Source: a virus (lineage: Duplodnaviria; Caudoviricetes). From it: a stretch of 64,000 nt of DNA. Every line of letters begins with the position of its first letter. The first letter of the stretch is position 1. The position numbers were made by a program, and so were the translations under genes. The stretch is from positions 299,532 through 363,531 of IMG/VR virus record IMGVR_UViG_3300021514_000002; one strand, 5' to 3'. Positions 8,639-59,508 of this stretch are shown here, in pieces. The notes below the pieces were generated by a model. The model did no database searches, was not told the DNA's origin, and saw only the letters and a list, made by a program, of their open reading frames with translations.

Positions 8639-10120
8639 ATGAACGAATTATTCGAAAACTGGGCAGAAACTAAAGCAGCATTGCTTGAAGGTCTTGACGC
8701 TCAAAAACAAAAGGTCGTAGCACCGCTGTTAGAAAATCAGAAAAATCATTTGATTGCTGAATCTGCAGCCGCTGGTTCTACTGCCGCACACGATATCGCT
8801 GGTTTCAGAAAGATTTTAATCCCAATGATCCGACGTATCATTCCAGGTACAATTGCTACTGAGCTTGTTGGTGTTCAACCAATGACTGGTCCAGTTGGAC
8901 TTGTATACACTTTACGTTACCGTTATACTGAAAGCGTATCTGCTACTTCACATGCTAACCCATTTGGTCTTCCAGGTGCAATTACAGCTGGTGATGAAGT
9001 ATTTGGTAACAGTTCACCAATCCGTCAATGGTATTCTGGCGCAGCTGGTCAACCTGTAGGTTCACCGTTAGTTGCTTCTGATGCACAGCCACAAGCACCT
9101 GGTGCCGGCGCTATCGCAGGTACAGACGCAGATGGAACAGTTGGTGCTGAAGCAATTGATACTGCATTGGCTTCTGGTCAAGCATGGCCTTCAAGCTTAG
9201 GTGCTTCTGCTGGTAACATTGGTTACGTTGACGGTCTTGGCCGTACAGTAGCTGGTTCAGTTTGGGGTGGTTCTGGTAGCTTTATTGAAGGTTCTGGTGG
9301 TCGTAAGATGACTATGGACGTTGTTAGTCAATCAGTTGAAGCTGGTTCACGTAAGTTACAAGCTGGTTGGACTATTGAAGCTATGCAAGATCTTAATGCA
9401 CAGCACGGTTTAGATCTTGAATCTGAAATGACACAGGCATTGTCTGCTGAAATCGTTCAAGAAATTGATCAAGAAATCATTACTGATCTTCTTGCCCTTG
9501 CAGGTACAGTAGATACATTTGATGGCGCTGGCGCTGGACAGTACAGCTTTAACAGTACTTCTGGTAACTATGCACCTGCATATGTTGGTGATCGTCTTGC
9601 TAACCTTGGTGTTATCATCAATCGTGTTGCAAATGAAATCGCACGTAAGACTCGTCGTGGCGCTGGCAACTTTATCGTTGTTTCTCCACTTATCGTTTCT
9701 GTTCTTCAGTCTGCTGCTAAGTCAGTATTCGCACCAGCTGTTGAAGGTTCATTCAAAGGTCCTAACAACTCTATGTTAGTTGGTACTTTAAACGGGACTA
9801 TCAAAGTATATAGTTACCTTTGGAACCAAGCAGGTGCAAACCTTGATCTTGGTGGTGGTGCTTCACCGCTTGAAAGTGCAAATGATACAATCCTTGTTGG
9901 TTATAAAGGTGGAAACGGAGAAACTGATACTGGTTACTTCTACTGCCCTTACATTCCATTGATGTCTTCTGGTGTTGTTGTTAATCCAACTACATTCCAA
10001 CCAGTTGTTAGTTTAATGACTCGCTACGGTAAGTCTGTTTTCACTAACACTGAAACATCCTTGGGCAATTCTGCAGATTATTACGGGAAAATAAATGTTG
10101 CAAATCTTGACCTTGTATAA
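8639..10120 (+). CDS. gp23: Major capsid protein
   Basis: VGVQPMTGPVGL, VEAGSRKLQAGWTIEAMQDL, YCPYIPL, MTRYG; LIAE/S prodomain cleavage site. Confidence 0.97.
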   Translation: MNELFENWAETKAALLEGLDAQKQKVVAPLLENQKNHLIAESAAAGSTAAHDIAGFRKILIPMIRRIIPGTIATELVGVQPMTGPVGLVYTLRYRYTESVSATSHANPFGLPGAITAGDEVFGNSSPIRQWYSGAAGQPVGSPLVASDAQPQAPGAGAIAGTDADGTVGAEAIDTALASGQAWPSSLGASAGNIGYVDGLGRTVAGSVWGGSGSFIEGSGGRKMTMDVVSQSVEAGSRKLQAGWTIEAMQDLNAQHGLDLESEMTQALSAEIVQEIDQEIITDLLALAGTVDTFDGAGAGQYSFNSTSGNYAPAYVGDRLANLGVIINRVANEIARKTRRGAGNFIVVSPLIVSVLQSAAKSVFAPAVEGSFKGPNNSMLVGTLNGTIKVYSYLWNQAGANLDLGGGASPLESANDTILVGYKGGNGETDTGYFYCPYIPLMSSGVVVNPTTFQPVVSLMTRYGKSVFTNTETSLGNSADYYGKINVANLDLV

Positions 10121-10175
10121 GGTTCTTGATAAACTACATTAAGTTTATTCTATAATATCTACATGTACGTAGAAC

Positions 10176-10203
10176 AAAAAAGCCACCCAACGGTGGCTTT
10201 TTT
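10176..10203. terminator. Rho-independent terminator
   Basis: AAAAAAGCCACC-CAAC-GGTGGCTTTTTT. Confidence 0.9.
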
Positions 10204-10269
10204 GTTCCTAATTGTGGATTCGCACATACTATTATGGTTGTGATATATAATATCGATAAAGGAAATAAT

Positions 10270-11070
10270 ATGACATATAACTATCCAAAAACTAATGCAA
10301 ATCTTAATACAACATATCCTGACAAATTGAAAGATATTGGATTAACGTTATTAGAACAATATACTGGTTCTAAAAAACACCATTTAATGAAATGTAACAC
10401 ATGTGAACATGAATGGTCGGCAACACCAAAATCTAAGATTGCAAACTTCAAGAAATTTGGAAAGGGTGGATGTCCAGAATGTACTAAACGACTAAGAGAA
10501 GAAAATGATTATATTCCAAAACGCAAAGCATTCATCCAAAAAATTCTGAATAACGGATTTGAAATATTATCAGATTATGATGGTAGTCAAGAATTAAATA
10601 ATAAATTTACTGTTCGTAATATTAAATGTGGTCATGTTTTTGAAACAAGACCAAAGAATATTATATCAAGAAACGTAAATTGTCCTATCTGTAATACGCA
10701 ACGCAAACGCGAAGCTTTCCAACAATTCAACATAGAAAGACAAGAAGAATACCAAAAAACAGCATCTGACTGGAACATCTATCGTCATTGTGTATATCAA
10801 CTTACGCGTCAAACTTATAAAGAACACCAATCTACTATAAATCCCACAAACCTTCCACGAGGTAAAGCGGGAGTTGATGGTGCTTATCATCTTGATCATA
10901 TCGTACCCGTTCGTTATTGTTTTAACAACAATATACCATCCGATATCTGTGCTCATTCATCAAACCTTCAAATGCTTAATTGGAACGATAACGTAGGTTC
11001 GCGAGATAAATTAAAACTCGACTTACCAATCCCAACCATATTACAAGAATATGTAAATTCAACATCATAA
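10270..11070 (+). mobile_element. Free-standing HNH homing endonuclease with zinc-ribbon repeats
   Basis: CxxC repeats (CNTC, CPEC, CPIC) and C-terminal YHLDHIVPV...NLQML.WNDN HNH motif; follows the capsid terminator. Confidence 0.7.
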
Positions 11071-21146: not shown

Positions 21147-22520
21147 ATGGCACAAGATCCAAGAAGATTTACAGTTAAAAACTGTCAAGCTGCGAAAAAT
21201 AGCGTAGCTTCTGCTGATCAAAAAAGGAAAGATTTTTTTGGTAGTTTGGGAAAAATGGGCGATATTGAAATACTAAACAGATTCGGTGGAAGTAAGATAA
21301 CTGCTGGATTGCGTGCATTAGCAAAAACTTCTGATTCAATAAGAACAGGCGCAACGAATTCTGTCATAATTCCTAATGATAGGGGTTACGTTCTTGATGC
21401 AGTTGGGATAAATCCAACTGCCGCAGTAAAGGCTGGCGAATTCAACCCAGGTGTATTTAACAGAGGAGTTGCTCAAGCAGAATCAGTGCTTGACAGCGTT
21501 AAGGGTGGGGATTTTAAACTTAACGATATCCCCGGTGCATTAACAGATCTTCAAAATTTGGGATCATTAGTAGACGGAATATACACGGATGATTCAGGAC
21601 AAAGTAGTACGAAAAGTATTGAGGTTTGTGGTGCATCACCATATGCTGTCGATCTTGTTCAATATGCACCAAAATATAAATTTCTATTCATTGTACAAGT
21701 TACCGTTAAAGAACAATATTTAACAGCATTGTCGGAAAATGCAAGACAATTGGCTTTCGTAGTTAAAACGAGCACCCGACCAAATGTTAATATAGAACAT
21801 GAAGAAGTCAACGTATATAATTTCTGGACTCGGGTTCCAAAAAGAGTCGCATATGAACCAATAACTATGCGTTTTTATGATGACAATAAAGGATTAGCTC
21901 ATCAATTCTATACATCATATTTAAGATATATTAGTCCGATTAGTAGAATCGGTGGAAAAGAAAGCGGATATATGAGTACTAAATGGCTCGAAGAAAACGG
22001 CATGAATTTTAATAAATATAGTGAAAAAAGTTCCGCGTCATTGGGAGCGCTAGAAGGTGATATTACTACTGTCATAGATGAAATAAAACTTTTTCATATT
22101 TACGACTATGGTAAAAAAATGACCGCCTATCATTTTCATCATCCAAAAATTCTTACTATGAATCTTGATGATTTAGACATGGCCGATAATGGCAATGGTA
22201 GTGAAATAGAATTACAATTTGCCTATGATGCATTGCACATAACCCCTGCCATTTCTATTGTTGGAAACCCTAAAGGCGTTGCCGAATTAACAGGTGATAA
22301 ATTAGGCGCACTTTATCCTATTAGACCAAACATTAAAGCGGATGAACCTGATGCATATCCAGAAGGTAGTGATGACGAAGACGGAATACCAGAGCCAAAC
22401 GAAGAAAATATTCTTCAAACTGCAACTTCTGCTGTTTCGTCGGGAATTTCCTCTGCTACAGGATTAGTAAGTAGTGCCTTTAATAGCGTTTCTGATTATG
22501 CAGGATCATTATTCAAATAA
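21147..22520 (+). CDS. Tube-like baseplate/tail junction protein (gp48/gp54-like)
   Basis: Central tube-fold motifs PKYKFLF..., RPNV.IEHEE, YEPITMRFYDD; TATAAATA at 21119. Confidence 0.55.
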   Translation: MAQDPRRFTVKNCQAAKNSVASADQKRKDFFGSLGKMGDIEILNRFGGSKITAGLRALAKTSDSIRTGATNSVIIPNDRGYVLDAVGINPTAAVKAGEFNPGVFNRGVAQAESVLDSVKGGDFKLNDIPGALTDLQNLGSLVDGIYTDDSGQSSTKSIEVCGASPYAVDLVQYAPKYKFLFIVQVTVKEQYLTALSENARQLAFVVKTSTRPNVNIEHEEVNVYNFWTRVPKRVAYEPITMRFYDDNKGLAHQFYTSYLRYISPISRIGGKESGYMSTKWLEENGMNFNKYSEKSSASLGALEGDITTVIDEIKLFHIYDYGKKMTAYHFHHPKILTMNLDDLDMADNGNGSEIELQFAYDALHITPAISIVGNPKGVAELTGDKLGALYPIRPNIKADEPDAYPEGSDDEDGIPEPNEENILQTATSAVSSGISSATGLVSSAFNSVSDYAGSLFK

Positions 22521-22982: not shown

Positions 22983-23047
22983 CCGAAAGAACCATCCTAA
23001 TAATTATTGATAAATAGTTACATTGCCGTATTATAGGAATTATTTAA

Positions 23048-23488
23048 ATGACTACTGACACTACTGAAGTTGAAATGATTATTGAACATCCATTAGAAGA
23101 AATATTTGATATTGAATCAGGTACGACGCTAATACCTCGTACGGAGAAAACTACAGAATTAGTAGCGGGAGAAGAATATGATGATAAAGATAAAGAAATT
23201 GAAGATCAGTTTCAAGAAGTATATGACCATGCCCTTTCCGCATTCGAAGATCAAGTAGCAGAAGCAGAAGTTATTGAAGGAAAATATAAAGCACGCAACA
23301 TGGAAGTTGGTGTTCAGTTATTAAATACCGCCCTTGCCGCAGCAAAAGAAAAATCATCACTGAAACAACATAAAGATAAGACAGCACTCGCCAAAGGAAA
23401 ACTTACAGGGAAAACGGTCAACCACAATAACCTCATTATAGCTGACCGCAACGAGTTATTAAAAACGTTGATGAATAAAAAAGATTAA
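23048..23488 (+). CDS. Probable terminase small subunit
   Basis: 146 aa; R.MEV..QLL helix and C-terminal VNHNNLIIADRNELLK typical of gp16-like proteins; upstream of the large terminase. Confidence 0.6.
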   Translation: MTTDTTEVEMIIEHPLEEIFDIESGTTLIPRTEKTTELVAGEEYDDKDKEIEDQFQEVYDHALSAFEDQVAEAEVIEGKYKARNMEVGVQLLNTALAAAKEKSSLKQHKDKTALAKGKLTGKTVNHNNLIIADRNELLKTLMNKKD

Positions 23489-24606
23489 TCTAATATTTTC
23501 ATCGCAGATTCAAAAGCATCAGATATTAGTTCATCAACTTCAGTCATACTTTCAATATTATCCGATTCTTTTTTTTCTTCAATCTTAAATGTTATATCTT
23601 TTAGTTTCGGTAAGTTATCCAATGTTAATTCGTAATAATAGTTACATGGTTCTTTTGTGATTGTAGTTGTCGCACCATCTTCCGTAGTAATTGTTTCTGT
23701 CGGCTGATTAACGTATTTACCGTAGCGTGACATAAATGTTGCAAAAGGTGCAAAAGTATCAGGATCTACTACAATCTGAGCCATTGTTGGAATATATGGT
23801 GCGTAAATGTAACCAGTATCAGTTTCACCATTACCGCCTTTATATCCAATAATAGTTTTACCATGTTCAAGTCCGAAATCACAATATACTTTTATAGAAC
23901 CATACAATGTTCCAATGTATTCGATGTAGCCATAATCGTATTCATTAAGTGCTTGTGGTATAAAGTTGTTACTATTTTTTAGGATTTCTGCAACGGCTTC
24001 AGACGCGATTACAAAATTACCACAACCTCGACGTGATTTCCTTGCAATTGAATTTGCGCATGAACTTATAGATATCCCAATCTTCACAATTTTATTTTGA
24101 TCAATATCCTTACCATCCCCTACGATTTTTTCAACGTCAAGTGACGCTTTATGTGCAATCCCAGAAATATCATTTCTAATTTCTTCGTATATTTCTTTGG
24201 CGATTTCTGTACAAGGATTTACTTTATCATCAAATACCCCTGCGTTTATATCTTCTAAGGCTTCAAGTGATAAACGTGTTTCTAATTTTCGCGCCCCTGC
24301 TTCTACTGCTTGCGAATTTATAGTTAGACTAATTCTGGTACCTACGTTGTTTTCTTCGTCTATAGGTTCTTCGTCTGTTATTTCATATTCTAATGAAAAT
24401 ATTAATCCAACAGGCGCTGTCATTGGTTGCACCCCAACAAAATGTCTGACAGCTAGACTATCAATCACTTCTGATGTAATATTTCTAATCATGTCTGCGC
24501 TTGAACTTGCACCCATGCCCGCAACGCTTTCAAGATAATCGTCTGTATTTTTAAGCAATGTATCCTTAATTATGTCTTTTGTCTGCTCTGTATCTACTAC
24601 GTTCAT
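23485..24606 (-). CDS. Reduced major-capsid (gp23) paralog
   Basis: VGVQPMTAPVGL, VEAGARKL, IARKSRRGCGNF, GYKGGNGETDTGY, YAPYIP, FMSRYG; start at MNVVD (24606) after a GAGG SD. Confidence 0.85.
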   Translation of the reverse strand: MNVVDTEQTKDIIKDTLLKNTDDYLESVAGMGASSSADMIRNITSEVIDSLAVRHFVGVQPMTAPVGLIFSLEYEITDEEPIDEENNVGTRISLTINSQAVEAGARKLETRLSLEALEDINAGVFDDKVNPCTEIAKEIYEEIRNDISGIAHKASLDVEKIVGDGKDIDQNKIVKIGISISSCANSIARKSRRGCGNFVIASEAVAEILKNSNNFIPQALNEYDYGYIEYIGTLYGSIKVYCDFGLEHGKTIIGYKGGNGETDTGYIYAPYIPTMAQIVVDPDTFAPFATFMSRYGKYVNQPTETITTEDGATTTITKEPCNYYYELTLDNLPKLKDITFKIEEKKESDNIESMTEVDELISDAFESAMKILD

Positions 24607-24622
24607 AATTCTATCCTCTTTC

Positions 24623-24696
24623 TCTTTATTTACTACTTTAAAAATTAGACATCCCAATAGATTGGTAACCCAAAAATGTGTGGTAGTAAATAAAGA
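24623..24696. repeat. Perfect 14-bp inverted repeat GTAGTAAATAAAGA (divergent promoter-like)
   Basis: TCTTTATTTACTAC at 24623-24636 and GTAGTAAATAAAGA at 24683-24696. Confidence 0.8.
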
Positions 24697-24697
24697 T

Positions 24698-25486
24698 ATG
24701 AAAAAAGAAATATTAAACGAATTACATGAACGACAGAACTTGCTAAATCTTGTGATAAATTCTGCAAGAGATCCGTCTTATTTTATAGAACACTATGCGA
24801 AGATACAACATCCAACAAAAGGTGCTGTTCCTTTTAAACCATATAAAAAACAAGAACAGTTGTTATATTCGTATCAGGAAAATCGTTGGAATATAACATT
24901 GGGTTCTAGGCAGACAGGAATCACTATAACTAATGCACTATACGCCTTCTGGTTTGCTATGTTTAAATCAGATAAAACTATAATGATTGCGGGTGAAAAG
25001 TTGCGACATTCTAAAGATATTTTACATAGTATTAGATTTGCGTATGAAAATTTACCCAAGTGGCTACAAGCCCGCAATAAATTAGTGATCAATAATAAAT
25101 GTATGATGCAATTTGAAAATGGTACAAGGATTTTGGCGATAGCGCCGACTATATATGCAGTTAGAGGATTTTCGGTCGATCTTATGATATTAGATTGTTT
25201 TGCATATATGTCACCAAATAAACAAGAAGAATTTTATACGTCACTATATCCTGCAACAATGGGTTCAAAAAATAGTGTAATGATTATGAGTTCGACTGGC
25301 GGCGGATATGACGGGGTATTTACCTCCATTTGGGATGATGCTTTGGCGAAAAAGAATAAATTCGTGGCAAACTTTATTAAATGGAATGATGTACCTGAAC
25401 GGGATGATGGGTTCAAGGATTCAATGGTTTCCATGCTTGGAGAAACACGATGGAAAGTGGAGTATGAATGCTCTTTTGATAATTAA
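24698..25486 (+). CDS. Terminase large subunit ATPase-only paralog with degenerate Walker A/B
   Basis: Collinear with the N-terminal half of 25498; SRQTGIT vs ARQTGKS and ILDCFAY vs FLDEFAF; no nuclease domain. Confidence 0.85.
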   Translation: MKKEILNELHERQNLLNLVINSARDPSYFIEHYAKIQHPTKGAVPFKPYKKQEQLLYSYQENRWNITLGSRQTGITITNALYAFWFAMFKSDKTIMIAGEKLRHSKDILHSIRFAYENLPKWLQARNKLVINNKCMMQFENGTRILAIAPTIYAVRGFSVDLMILDCFAYMSPNKQEEFYTSLYPATMGSKNSVMIMSSTGGGYDGVFTSIWDDALAKKNKFVANFIKWNDVPERDDGFKDSMVSMLGETRWKVEYECSFDN

Positions 25487-25497
25487 GGAAGATTATA

Positions 25498-27054
25498 ATG
25501 GCGCGCGCAAAGAATGATAAGTTAAAAACCCCCGATCAGGAAGTTGAATTTACATATGAACAGGTACAAGAGCTAAAGCGTTGTGTTCAAGATCCTATTT
25601 ACTTTATAGAAAATTACGTTCAAATACAACATCCCGTTAAGGGTGCCGTTCCCTTTCGGTTATATCCATATCAAAAAAATATGATTCGTGCATATCAAGA
25701 TAACCGTTACACTGTAGTACTTTCTGCACGTCAAACTGGTAAATCTATAACATCCGCCGCCTACCTTCTTTGGTATGCAATGTTCCAGTTTGATAAAACC
25801 GTCCTGATTGCAGCCAATAAAAACGCAAATGCAATGGAAATGATTTTACGTATTCGTTTTGCATATGAAAATCTTCCAATGTGGTTGAAAGCTGGCGTTA
25901 AAGACGATGGTTGGAATAAACATGAAATTGGCTTTGATAATGGTTCCCGTATCGTGTCAACCGCAACATCGGAAGATTCTGGTCGTGGTATGGCTATTTC
26001 ACTTTTGTTCCTTGACGAATTTGCATTTGTAAAACCTAATATCCAAGATGAATTTTGGACATCAATAGCACCTACATTATCAACTGGTGGTTCGTGTATA
26101 ATGACATCAACGCCTAATGGTGACATGAATATTTATGCTCAGGTTTGGCGCGGTTCGCAAATGGGTACTAATGGATTTTTCCCTATACATGTTAAATGGG
26201 ACGAACCCCCAGGCAGAGATGGTAAGTTTAAAGAGGAGGAAACTGGAAGGATTGGTGTCCGTCGTTGGCAACAAGAATATGAATGTGTCTTTTTGTCATC
26301 AGATTCATTGCTTATTGATTCGTTATTTCTTACGAACCTAACGCCGTTAATTGAAGCAATCGTTCCTAAGCTTACTGTAAACGATGTTGTTTTGTTTGAT
26401 GAAATAAAACCAGCAAATACATATTTACTGGGTGTCGATCCTGCTACTGGCAGTGGTGAAGATTATAGTGTTATCACTATATTTGAATTTCCGTCAATGA
26501 CTCAGGTTGGTGAATATCGTAGTAATACAATGTCCACAAATGATTTATATGGTGTTATGAAAAATATATTAAAACATATAGAATCAAAAGGAGCGATGGT
26601 ATATTTCTCAATAGAAAATAACGGCGTTGGTCAGGGATTAATTGCATTATATGAAGCTGATGAAGAGCCATTAAAACTTGCTGAGTTTGTTTCAGAAGAC
26701 GGCAAGAATAAATTAGGATTCACAACAACAGCACGTAGTAAAATGCGCTCGTGTGTTAACCTGAAAGAAATGCTTGAAAAAGAAAATATGCATATTACTT
26801 CAAGAATCCTTTTATCTGAATTAAAGTCTTATGTTCGTTCACGTGGTGCATATGCAGCGCAAGCAGGTGCAACAGATGATTGTATAGCTGCAACGCTTAT
26901 TGTACTTAGATTAGTAGAAGAGATCGCGGCGTATGAGCAGGCGGCGTTTGATAAACTATATGCAGGCGATTATGATGAATGGAAGCAATCAGACTGGGAT
27001 GGATATGAAGAAGGATACGATGAAAACGACGAGGGATTGCCTAGTATATTTTAA
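25498..27054 (+). CDS. gp17: Terminase large subunit
   Basis: LYPYQ, ARQTGKS, FLDEFAF, TSTPNG, LGVDPATG.G.DYS nuclease motif, IENNGVG, DDCIAA. Confidence 0.95.
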   Translation: MARAKNDKLKTPDQEVEFTYEQVQELKRCVQDPIYFIENYVQIQHPVKGAVPFRLYPYQKNMIRAYQDNRYTVVLSARQTGKSITSAAYLLWYAMFQFDKTVLIAANKNANAMEMILRIRFAYENLPMWLKAGVKDDGWNKHEIGFDNGSRIVSTATSEDSGRGMAISLLFLDEFAFVKPNIQDEFWTSIAPTLSTGGSCIMTSTPNGDMNIYAQVWRGSQMGTNGFFPIHVKWDEPPGRDGKFKEEETGRIGVRRWQQEYECVFLSSDSLLIDSLFLTNLTPLIEAIVPKLTVNDVVLFDEIKPANTYLLGVDPATGSGEDYSVITIFEFPSMTQVGEYRSNTMSTNDLYGVMKNILKHIESKGAMVYFSIENNGVGQGLIALYEADEEPLKLAEFVSEDGKNKLGFTTTARSKMRSCVNLKEMLEKENMHITSRILLSELKSYVRSRGAYAAQAGATDDCIAATLIVLRLVEEIAAYEQAAFDKLYAGDYDEWKQSDWDGYEEGYDENDEGLPSIF

Positions 27055-27063
27055 ACAACATTA

Positions 27064-27702
27064 TCATGAATAATGTTGTTTAATAATCTCAGTGCTTGCC
27101 CCAACATCAATAATAACGGGTTGGTTTTTATATATGCCCCAATTTGCTAATCGCGTAAAATCGGCTGGCTCGATATCATAATTACCAACTAGATCTACAA
27201 GACTATTAAGAGTTTCGTTTTCTTCATAGATCTCTTCATATCTTGCTTGGGTTTCTTCATCAACACGAATATTCCATTTACCTGTCATAAATTTTACAAG
27301 GTGAATTGCTTCATCTGGCGTTAAACCATTAAAAAATTGTTTGAACTGCGTTGGTTTCATTTTTTCAGCTTTTTCAACATGAATCCATGTAGGTGGATTG
27401 TTTTCTTCATCGAAATCAATCATAGGAATTGTAATACCCATATCAGTAAGATAGTAATCGCCAAACATTTGGGATTCGTATTCATTCTGGGCAATACCTT
27501 TTTTATTTTTGGCAATTTTTAATATCGTTGCACGTCCTTCGTATTCAATTTCAAAGGCGATTCGGGATGAACCTGTTCCAATTTTTGCCGCCCGTTCTTG
27601 AGCGTAACGAACGCGTTGTGCAAACGGAACATTCTGTTTGTATTTTGATTTATCCCAATCATCGGGTAATGGCGCTTCTTTTAATAATTCTTTGATTTTC
27701 AT
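27064..27702 (-). CDS. Protein-kinase-like fold protein
   Basis: IGTGSSRIAF (Gly loop), ILKIAK, QNEYE, DFTRLANWG (catalytic loop), IIDVG (DFG-like). Confidence 0.6.
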   Translation of the reverse strand: MKIKELLKEAPLPDDWDKSKYKQNVPFAQRVRYAQERAAKIGTGSSRIAFEIEYEGRATILKIAKNKKGIAQNEYESQMFGDYYLTDMGITIPMIDFDEENNPPTWIHVEKAEKMKPTQFKQFFNGLTPDEAIHLVKFMTGKWNIRVDEETQARYEEIYEENETLNSLVDLVGNYDIEPADFTRLANWGIYKNQPVIIDVGASTEIIKQHYS

Positions 27703-28970: not shown

Positions 28971-28990
28971 CATCTACGATAAATAGATAC

Positions 28991-29560
28991 ATGGAAAATA
29001 AATATGAAATTATTCGCGGAAAACGCATTGAAGATCAATTAGATGGCTATGAATTATTTGAACAATCTACATACAATGATTTAGAACGGAATGTACTAAA
29101 TTTCACTCCTGTTTCTACTAAGCGCCAAAATGCGGTCGATCCTGTTAGGGTAACTAGTATGGCATTGCTTCCCTTTATCGGTACAAAAAATCTTAATGTT
29201 GATACTATCGCGAGTAGTGATGGTACAAATTATAGTCCTAAAATTATCTTTAATAATGTTGAATTTGAAGAAGAAGACTTGCCAGAGAATGTGACGTTTA
29301 AAGGTAAAGATGGTAATGATTATCATATTAAACCAATTAACTTGGCTCAGAATACATTACGCGTTAGATGCGATTGTCTTGATTTTTATTGGAGATTTGC
29401 CGCGTTTAATGCAAAAGATAAAAGCTTAATCGGAGCACCGCCTAGAGCATATCAACGTAAAACCAATCGTGGTCCAGTAAACCCACAAGAAGTTCCGGGT
29501 GTATGTAAACATCTTATTGCCGCAATGAAAGCATTAAAACATTCAGGCATTGTGCGTTAA
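28991..29560 (+). CDS. SWIM-type zinc-finger protein
   Basis: RVRCDCLDF...VCKHLIA (CxC...CxH); GATAAATA late-type motif upstream. Confidence 0.6.
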   Translation: MENKYEIIRGKRIEDQLDGYELFEQSTYNDLERNVLNFTPVSTKRQNAVDPVRVTSMALLPFIGTKNLNVDTIASSDGTNYSPKIIFNNVEFEEEDLPENVTFKGKDGNDYHIKPINLAQNTLRVRCDCLDFYWRFAAFNAKDKSLIGAPPRAYQRKTNRGPVNPQEVPGVCKHLIAAMKALKHSGIVR

Positions 29561-58875: not shown

Positions 58876-58932
58876 TACATGTGCCATTAGGAAGTGGGAA
58901 ACTTCCCACTTCCAGAACGCATAAATAGATAT

Positions 58933-59508
58933 ATGCGTGTAAAAGACTTAATTTATGATTATAAAATTGGTGCTCTGGAACCAATTAAACAACAATGTGC
59001 CCAGTTCTTTGAAGAATCGGCTGGGCTTCCTATGGTTAAAAGTTTACCACAAATCTATGAAGATTTTAAGAAAGTTAAAGTACGCAAAAGAAAGCATACT
59101 AACACATTTTCTAACATGTTCAATGGTGCGTTTAAGAATGAAATAAATAACTTACGGGAACGTTCAATATTTGCCAATGGTTTGGCGGCAATTGAACACA
59201 ATATCATGGAATCCACCGAACCGTTCTACATTTTCCCCATAGATGGATACAAATTTCTATATAGTAAGGAAGTAGAGGATTCGAATAAAAATTATAAACA
59301 AGTATTTGAATCAATCCTTGACCAATTAGGAGAACAGTCTGGTAAGGATGTAGTGACAGATCTTCTTAGGTTTACATATATATCTGAAAATCTGGTAGCT
59401 GGAATTGAATCTGGTGCAGAAATTATATTATACGGCGTTCCATATTATTATGCGGTTCGTGAATCGTGTATAGATAATTATGATGAGCTCTTGACAGTAC
59501 TCACATAA
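58933..59508 (+). CDS. Hypothetical late protein, possible ADP-ribosyltransferase-like fold
   Basis: CATAAATA upstream; VRKRK...RSIFA...YIFP.DG.KF.YS...SGAEIIL pattern. Confidence 0.4.
   Translation: MRVKDLIYDYKIGALEPIKQQCAQFFEESAGLPMVKSLPQIYEDFKKVKVRKRKHTNTFSNMFNGAFKNEINNLRERSIFANGLAAIEHNIMESTEPFYIFPIDGYKFLYSKEVEDSNKNYKQVFESILDQLGEQSGKDVVTDLLRFTYISENLVAGIESGAEIILYGVPYYYAVRESCIDNYDELLTVLT

Follow-up and report, generated by a model that had tools for sequence, protein, structure and literature searches.

Introduction

Packaging motors of tailed phages are, in their textbook form, homo-pentamers of the large terminase TerL helped by the small terminase TerS. In phage T4, the vertex protein gp24 is a paralog of the capsid protein gp23 and forms pentamers at the 11 non-portal vertices, whilst late promoters carry the motif TATAAATA, depend on gp55, gp33 and gp45, and need no upstream element. 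Here we describe a terminase locus of a jumbo phage from hydrothermal vents whose TerL and major capsid protein (MCP) are of T4 type. It lies in the final 64 kb of a 363,531-bp IMG/VR virus record; these 64,000 nucleotides are called the window, and positions are those of the window unless the genome or a relative is named. At this locus, a 91-bp gap separates two divergent genes: gp23', encoding a paralog of the MCP, on the minus strand, and TerL-N', encoding a copy of the TerL ATPase domain, on the plus strand directly before terL.

A first-pass annotation of the window had proposed that these two genes form a candidate cassette driven by a symmetric 14-bp element. Our analysis leads us to favor, with moderate confidence, a different arrangement, in which the gap would act as a bidirectional, activator-assisted late promoter serving a minor capsid protein in one direction and a TerL-N'-terL operon in the other. 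The architecture of the locus is real and partly new.

Results

Two late-type boxes face outward from a conserved palindrome

The layout described in the first-pass annotation is borne out in full, at the coordinates given there. The ATGs of gp23' and TerL-N' lie at 24606 and 24698 with 91 bp between them (24607-24697), and the pair splits terS (23048-23488) from terL (25498-27054). Within the gap, TCTTTATTTACTAC (24623-24636) is the exact reverse complement of GTAGTAAATAAAGA (24683-24696), giving a perfect 14-bp inverted repeat. Each arm contains the same late-promoter-like box, AGTAAATA, which stands before its gene (24627-24634 on the minus strand for gp23'; 24685-24692 on the plus strand for TerL-N') at a spacing used by late genes of this genome. 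The first base of the left box is 28 nt ahead of the gp23' ATG, which is preceded by a 5' leader (24607-24626, minus strand) with the Shine-Dalgarno sequence AGAGGA. On the right, exactly 5 nt intervene between the box and the TerL-N' ATG, which puts the start of the box 13 nt from the ATG. Between the two boxes lies a strandless palindrome (24654-24670), CCAAT-AG-ATTGG, extended to ATTGGTAAC.

Eleven related loci besides the window were gathered through protein and DNA searches. A first scan of viral contigs with TerL-N' alone found nothing; a scan using the gp23' alignment did return relatives. The control region was compared in eight genomes with readable DNA, in which gp23' is only 35-53% identical; five of them entered a multiple alignment. 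The central palindrome, CCAAT-AG-ATTGGTAAC, is recognizable in all eight, and no other non-coding block is as well conserved. Across the five aligned genomes, AATAGATTGGTAACC is invariant at the palindrome, as is the gp23' leader with its Shine-Dalgarno sequence (read as its complement, TCCTCTTTT). On each side, and in every one of the eight genomes, the ATTGG half-site is exactly 19 nt from the box while the letters of the spacer vary. Indels respect this distance: L012 has a 1-nt insertion at the center of the palindrome with both spacings kept, L011 and L013 have indels in the left half-site itself with the spacings intact, and there are no others. The TAAATA core of the right box is present throughout (AGTAAATA in four genomes, GGTAAATA in three and GCTAAATA in one), and that of the left box in seven of eight (AGTAAATA in five, ACTAAATA and AATAAATA in one each), the exception being GATATATA in L018.

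Chance is an unlikely source of the repeat: perfect inverted repeats of at least 14 bp with a loop of at most 80 nt are expected only 0.15 times per Markov-shuffled genome, and relatives conserve the element. The unit is, however, larger than the 14-bp symmetric element originally proposed, comprising the palindrome and the two boxes. It is this larger element that is kept in eight genomes; identity of the arms over 14 bp is peculiar to the window phage, the shared core in relatives being 9-10 bp or less.

An inverted repeat in such a position might act as nucleic acid rather than as a protein target, either as an RNA hairpin in read-through transcripts from terS (a terminator, an attenuator or a mask over the TerL-N' start) or as a cruciform or pac-type site that terminase would recognize. 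The 91-nt gap does fold at -18.8 kcal/mol (z = -3.5), its single-copy central block sits inside the terminase locus, and terS converges on gp23' without a terminator, making read-through into the gap plausible. Yet the arms differ without compensating change in four of the eight genomes (L013, L018, L019 and L020), and it is the distance from each arm to its gene start and half-site, not arm-to-arm pairing, that is conserved. No run of T follows the stem, and Rfam has no family in the gap (a single sub-threshold match, at chance level, lies inside gp23'). We regard a role as nucleic-acid structure as improbable. Because the arms change independently and without compensation, they are better read as boxes recognized by protein than as a hairpin, and the 14-bp repeat would then be two promoter boxes with similar flanks facing each other. 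A scan for sigma-70-like promoters and terminators found none in the gap, with regional counts at the level of shuffled sequence.

The right box appears to be the ancestral promoter of terL

In the three relatives that have no TerL-N' (L011, L013 and L019), the right box precedes terL with a leader of approximately 30-50 nt (38 nt in L011) and a Shine-Dalgarno sequence. Because these relatives keep the box before terL, it would be terL's own, ancestral promoter. The first-pass proposal of a two-gene cassette, taken as a self-contained unit, does not accommodate this finding, for the right arm belongs to terL and the same three relatives retain it together with gp23' in the absence of TerL-N'. 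Where TerL-N' is present, RGTAAATA-N5-ATG is kept in all five genomes with readable DNA. In L011 (7877-8000, reverse strand), the right box is followed by ATG GAA ATA GGA TAA and then by the terL leader; this start codon, three codons and stop look like the scar of a clean TerL-N' deletion.

The two spacings are those of the genome's late genes

Genome-wide, 59-67% of copies of the late motif [T/G/C]ATAAATA lie at most 100 nt upstream of an ATG in the correct orientation, against a background of 7%. Late genes fall into two classes. In the first, a Shine-Dalgarno sequence accompanies a box that starts 22-50 nt ahead of the ATG. The second, a sharp class of at least ten genes, has no Shine-Dalgarno sequence, and exactly 5 nt stand between the box and the ATG; members in the window occur at 28978-28993 and 58920-58935, with about ten more in the genome outside it. 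For one second-class gene, encoding a 189-aa protein, the order of terminator hairpin, box, GATAC and ATG is conserved in L011 and L012. The spacings of the two arms match these two canonical classes, the left arm having the longer, Shine-Dalgarno-led form.

T4 late boxes span positions -13 to -6, and the base at -12 varies among phages, with Aeh1 using CTAAATA (PMC1524935). When this placement is applied to box-N5-ATG, transcription of second-class genes would begin on the A of the ATG and yield leaderless mRNAs. At -12, the window boxes have G and the genome's enriched form has A. A gp55-like 187-aa frame (genome 291826-292128) is 31% identical to residues 4-116 of T4 gp55 (E 7e-5), a weak but specific match, and the genome also encodes an extra Sigma70_r2 protein (genome 106288-106491).

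The central palindrome itself is single-copy in the genome, and an additional ATTGGTAAC-N15-GGTAAATA arrangement precedes a 163-aa open reading frame (ORF) at genome 266950-267517, 32.6 kb upstream of the window. By a rough estimate, the chance of such a further copy is about 0.003. The ORF has no Pfam or PHROG match, and may be a third member of the same promoter class. A fourth 'ATTGGTAAC' site, before a radical-SAM-like gene (genome 49825, minus strand), was rejected, its box being TCAAAATA.

TerL-N' belongs to a family of inactivated terminase ATPases

TerL-N' (24698-25486, plus strand, 262 aa) ends 11 nt upstream of terL. As the first-pass annotation recognized, it is a paralog of the packaging motor: it is 43% identical to residues 31-265 of TerL, the N-terminal ATPase half, and aligns to residues 116-322 of T4 gp17 (E 2e-17). 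Its sole Pfam match is Terminase_6N, below the cut-off. The database gene call opens at a GTG 18 nt earlier, but only the ATG is conserved in relatives. The protein stops at the ATPase domain boundary and has no RNase H-like nuclease domain. Its Walker A motif reads GIT where TerL has GKS, its Walker B DC where TerL has DE, and its coupling motif SSTGGG in place of TSTPNG. In all seven aligned orthologs the Walker A Lys is replaced (by I, I, I, L, T, I and L), as is the Walker B Glu (by C, C, D, N, N, N and D), whereas every TerL compared keeps both. Because these two residues are replaced, the coupling motif is altered and the nuclease domain is missing, TerL-N' is predicted to be unable to hydrolyse ATP or cut DNA and would not be an active terminase.

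An exhaustive profile-free search, from which the best 150 cluster representatives were considered, placed TerL-N' in a wider family. Among those representatives were 45 proteins of fewer than 330 aa, 28 of which have neither the Lys nor the Glu; nearly all of the long hits retain them. Other features persist. Across 32 family members, the P-loop Arg is present in 32, its Gln in 31 and its Gly in 31; the Walker B Asp is found in 30 and the adenine-binding Gln in 31; and of the Arg-Gly pair ten residues before Walker B, the first position is basic in 26 and the Gly is present in all 32. TerL-N' itself keeps the P-loop Arg, the adenine-binding Gln, the Walker B Asp and the Arg-Gly 'finger', whose Arg we take, from the work on P74-26 TerL, to be the trans-acting arginine finger.

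In every context seen, the family gene is directly upstream of terL on the same strand. In three sampled contexts it stands directly before terL with no Gp23-family match on record among the neighbors. Family members of 227-290 aa that have lost Lys and Glu occur in other jumbo phages. In Xoo-sp13, Xoosp13_242 (L001 6920-7615) is TerL-ATPase-like with RESGTS and LDV replacing the motifs; its annotation as 'terminase small subunit' is misleading. In 121Q, gp3 (L049 1570-2253), annotated as hypothetical, fits the family profile (hhalign 77%, E 2e-5) and reads R-IGTT and IDM at the motifs. Xoo-sp13 also has a gp23 paralog, likewise without the insertion domain, so that gp23 paralog, dead ATPase and terL follow in order on one strand. 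The trio therefore recurs in a lineage with a TerL identity of just 50%. The neighborhoods sampled here show the linkage again in Xoo-sp13, and elsewhere gp23' without TerL-N' as well as TerL-N' without gp23'. As the TerL-N' family is found before terL with or without a gp23 paralog, the two genes do not constitute an obligatory unit.

Given its operon link with terL, the finger region that it has kept and how widely its family occurs, TerL-N' most likely acts by binding, as a non-catalytic partner or regulator of the packaging enzyme TerL/TerS. A predicted complex of TerL and TerL-N' scored 0.00, which is evidence neither way. Our literature search for inactive, second or truncated terminase paralogs found no functional study.

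gp23' is an old capsid paralog with a complete lattice fold

The gp23' gene (23485-24606, minus strand; ATG at 24606, stop at 23485) encodes 373 aa matching Pfam Gp23 (E 2e-53, profile positions 126-371, plus a short N-terminal piece). The protein is 35% identical to the phage's own MCP (8639-10120), in agreement with the capsid paralogy first proposed. MCP residues 100-216, an insertion domain of approximately 117 aa, are replaced in gp23' by a few residues, and a conserved C-terminal extension of approximately 40-70 aa terminates in the helix DAFExAMxLLD. In an AlphaFold2 (AF2) model (predicted local distance difference test, pLDDT, 81), gp23' adopts the HK97 fold in full, including N-arm, E-loop, P and A domains. 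Among PDB structures, T4 gp23 and gp24 match the model best, and equally well (E about 1e-14 to 1e-13).

The 14 gp23' orthologs form one clade (support 99/97) with about 75 invariant columns. As the tree places this clade outside the MCPs of the entire phage group, which are tightly conserved, gp23' is an old, independent paralog rather than a recent copy. The complete lattice-forming fold, late promoter, purifying selection and great age indicate that gp23' is most likely a low-copy capsid protein in the role of gp24 at pentameric vertices. A third gp23-family ORF of 298 aa lies outside the window (genome 24225-25121, minus strand; Pfam Gp23 E 7e-10), has a very long branch and carries a AATAAATA box upstream.

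Both genes evolve fast under purifying selection

In 11 of 11 relatives, gp23' runs antisense, with terS on one flank and the terL side on the other. Eight loci carry TerL-N' (the P0006 contig, L009, the P0008 contig, L012, L018, L020, L055 and the window itself), and it is absent from L011, L013 and L019. Because gp23' is constant while TerL-N' comes and goes, the pair is not an autonomous inserted cassette. Conservation of the whole control region fits the proposed co-regulation and makes joint regulation of gp23' with TerL-N' and terL plausible.

Identity to the window proteins is 51-53% for gp23' and 43-60% for TerL-N', against 66-91% for neighbors. For the same set of genomes, tree paths within TerL-N' are longer than those within TerL by a factor of approximately 7-15. 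The ratio of nonsynonymous to synonymous rates (dN/dS) is 0.25 for gp23', at a synonymous divergence (dS) of 0.22, and 0.35 for TerL-N', the latter from a partial gene with 12 changes only. Thus, both proteins evolve much faster than their neighbors yet remain under purifying selection. Between the close relatives L055 and L012, dS is 0.22 in gp23' and 0.06 in the adjacent TerL-N' fragment, a contrast suggestive of recombination whose breakpoint would fall within the shared control region or close to it.

It might be supposed that TerL-N' is the decaying relic of a partial tandem duplication of terL, that gp23' is a redundant copy and that the motif is a neutral by-product. The catalytic residues of TerL-N' are indeed gone, and the gene is deleted in some relatives, L011 having only the start codon, three codons and stop behind the box. 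Decay is nevertheless hard to reconcile with a frame that is open in all eight carriers despite 43-60% identity, with dozens of clusters at 50% identity that conserve the R-Q-x-G, Asp and Arg-Gly positions, with dN/dS below 1 in both genes, or with the old, monophyletic gp23' clade and its invariant columns. The conservation data largely refute this explanation, and we hold it to be very improbable. The tree speaks neither for nor against a recent duplication of terL in place as the source of TerL-N', which is monophyletic (100/100) but has a long, unplaced stem; the homologues in Xoo-sp13 and 121Q suggest an older origin with later losses.

Rapid evolution also bears on the decoy function that the first-pass annotation had raised. 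In a conflict module of this kind, gp23' and TerL-N', jointly expressed from the control region they share, would act as decoys or shields that bind host sensors of capsid and terminase folds (Avs, CapRel or Lit-type), or would poison packaging by rival phages or satellites. That the two proteins are the fastest-evolving at the locus, with long TerL-N' tree paths and a relatively relaxed dN/dS of 0.25-0.35, is in keeping with such a function, as are the loss of TerL-N' from three of 11 relatives, the persistence of two intact proteins of which one is catalytically dead, and the recurrence of the trio in Xoo-sp13. Several observations point elsewhere. The late structural-gene promoter and operon coupling to terL better fit a role in packaging, gp23' retains every element of the capsid lattice, and each gene occurs without the other. 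By our own reasoning from the published mechanism of Avs, a mimic of the fold would be expected to trigger such fold-sensing proteins rather than block them; no defense or anti-defense family was tested or matched. A decoy role draws its support solely from fast evolution and dispensability, with which it is compatible; overall, a conflict module seems to us unlikely.

Genomic setting of the locus

DNA of the window is found in hydrothermal-vent metagenomes from two studies. Over 23000-27100, pieces from a 2018 vent run of the other study match with zero differing letters, and a near-identical phage genotype was thus sampled in two studies, seven years apart. Since their letters are identical, the pieces from the second vent study supplied no variants on which a population test could draw. 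Among cultured phages, the nearest relatives are the jumbo myoviruses Xoo-sp13, XacN1, RsoM2USA, PA5oct, Atu_ph07 and Phosso. The local gene order mirrors the neck, tail and packaging genes of T4: gp13-like, gp15-like, sheath, tube and a 457-aa tube-like protein, followed by a gp4-like head-closure nuclease, terS, gp23' (antisense), TerL-N' and terL. The 457-aa gene (21147-22520) comes just after the 196-aa tail tube gene; residues 173-370 of its product match tail-tube PHROGs, and the product is weakly similar to the tube protein, being a second, enlarged tube paralog such as is annotated in PA5oct.

The terS gene (23048-23488, plus strand) encodes 146 aa matching phrog_445 (E 1.4e-7), is 78-83% identical among relatives and has its own GATAAATA box starting 39 nt ahead of the ATG. 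Its stop codon and that of the convergent gp23' overlap inside the palindrome GATTAATC (23483-23490). The overlap is 4 nt in every relative, and since there is no terminator at these convergent stops, terS transcripts should read antisense across gp23' towards terL. The terL gene (25498-27054, plus strand) encodes 518 aa with Pfam Terminase_6N and Terminase_6C; Walker A (GKS), Walker B (DE) and both the ATPase and nuclease domains are intact, and identity among relatives is 87-91%. In L011 alone, terS and the gp4-like gene are separated by a 312-aa DUF723-domain gene (9748-10686), which may be a mobile-endonuclease insertion.

Two candidate counterparts of gp23' in cultured relatives were rejected. 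PA5oct gp281, a virion protein encoded just before terL, was considered as a positional analogue, and XacN1 ORF257 as a counterpart; neither has similarity to gp23'. XacN1 retains merely a remnant Gp23-like piece, in ORF261.

Discussion

Taken together, our findings are consistent with a two-way late promoter at the center of the terminase locus. On each side, a late-type -10 box, xxTAAATA, would correspond to the T4 gp55 motif with a non-consensus base at -12. The ATTGG half-sites 19 bp upstream of the two boxes jointly form the palindrome, which is probably bound by a dimeric phage factor, or by an alternative sigma-type factor, that aids these weak boxes. Leftward, a Shine-Dalgarno-led mRNA would be made for gp23', most likely a low-copy vertex protein and functional analogue of gp24. 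Rightward, to judge from the spacing, the first transcribed base would be the A of the TerL-N' ATG, and the resulting leaderless mRNA would continue into terL. TerL-N', which keeps its fold and arginine-finger region, would then serve as a non-catalytic accessory or regulator of TerL/TerS.

Several observations weigh against this model. The first-pass annotation regarded AGTAAATA as a variant of the general late promoter, but only about 2 of 25 copies in the genome lie upstream of genes, compared with approximately 60% for [T/G/C]ATAAATA. Recognition by the gp55-like protein is putative and, given the extra Sigma70_r2 protein, the box could belong to another factor. The three relatives without TerL-N' indicate that it is dispensable for packaging as such. 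In sequence, gp23' is nearer to T4 gp23 than to gp24 (phmmer E 8e-16 versus 5e-4) and has no insertion domain, which gp24 does have; its identity of approximately 51%, where neighbors reach 66-91%, is also unusually low for a structural protein.

It is tempting to speculate that a phage factor reads a wider 'packaging regulon' comprising gp23', TerL-N'-terL and the gene for the 163-aa protein, with gp23' and TerL-N' acting together at a special vertex or jointly shielding the phage from host sensors of capsid and terminase. In the former version, gp23' would form a pentamer or a portal-proximal ring, its C-terminal helices serving as the dock for a heteromeric TerL/TerL-N' motor. We consider this extension of the model rather unlikely.

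The existence of a family of dead TerL ATPases is already visible in public records, albeit under misleading or empty names. What is new here is the palindrome-centered two-way promoter with its fixed 19-nt spacing, the assignment of its right half as an apparent ancestral terL promoter, and the recurrent link of a dead ATPase with a capsid paralog that has no insertion domain; TerL-N' as a leaderless first cistron is a probable further addition. A widespread and conserved gene of this kind before terL suggests a third, unstudied component or regulator of packaging. The locus offers a route by which it would be expressed, namely terL's own promoter, probably as a leaderless first cistron, and repeatedly links it with a stripped-down capsid paralog. 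A heteromeric TerL/TerL-N' motor, if true, would provide the first case of a packaging motor that has a non-catalytic subunit built in. Furthermore, a T4-style late box held at a fixed distance from a palindromic site would mean that late transcription in jumbo T4-like phages is less element-poor than in T4.

Comparison with T4 late promoters brings out both likeness and departure. The window boxes have the invariant TAAATA core, a gp55-like gene is present, and the boxes sit where the genome's canonical late boxes sit relative to gene starts. Conversely, they have G (or C) at -12, which is otherwise unused upstream of genes here, each is coupled, at a distance of exactly 19 bp, with a conserved upstream ATTGG(TAAC) element, and the two promoters mirror each other around one palindrome. 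Conservation of ATTGG at this distance argues for an additional requirement beyond the T4 late box.

For the proteins, similar contrasts emerge. Like T4 gp24 (PDB 1YUE), gp23' is a second gp23-family HK97-fold protein beside the main MCP system, and is shorter and faster-evolving than the MCP. Unlike gp24, it has a conserved C-terminal helix and no insertion domain, and is encoded antisense in the terminase locus rather than beside gene 23; its vertex location is hypothetical. Over the whole ATPase domain, TerL-N' has a fold homologous to that of T4 gp17 (Terminase_6N; PDB 2O0H, 3CPE and 3EZK) and keeps the adenine-binding Gln, Arg-Gln-x-Gly, Walker B Asp and Arg-Gly; it differs in having neither the Walker A Lys nor the catalytic Glu, and no TSTPNG motif or nuclease domain. 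The closest parallels are the genes of Xoo-sp13 and 121Q, with which TerL-N' shares size class, position before terL and loss of Lys and Glu. In contrast to both of those loci, the window clade has a separate terS upstream; and unlike in Xoo-sp13, its gp23 paralog is inverted, sharing a palindrome-centered two-way promoter with the TerL-N'-terL operon.

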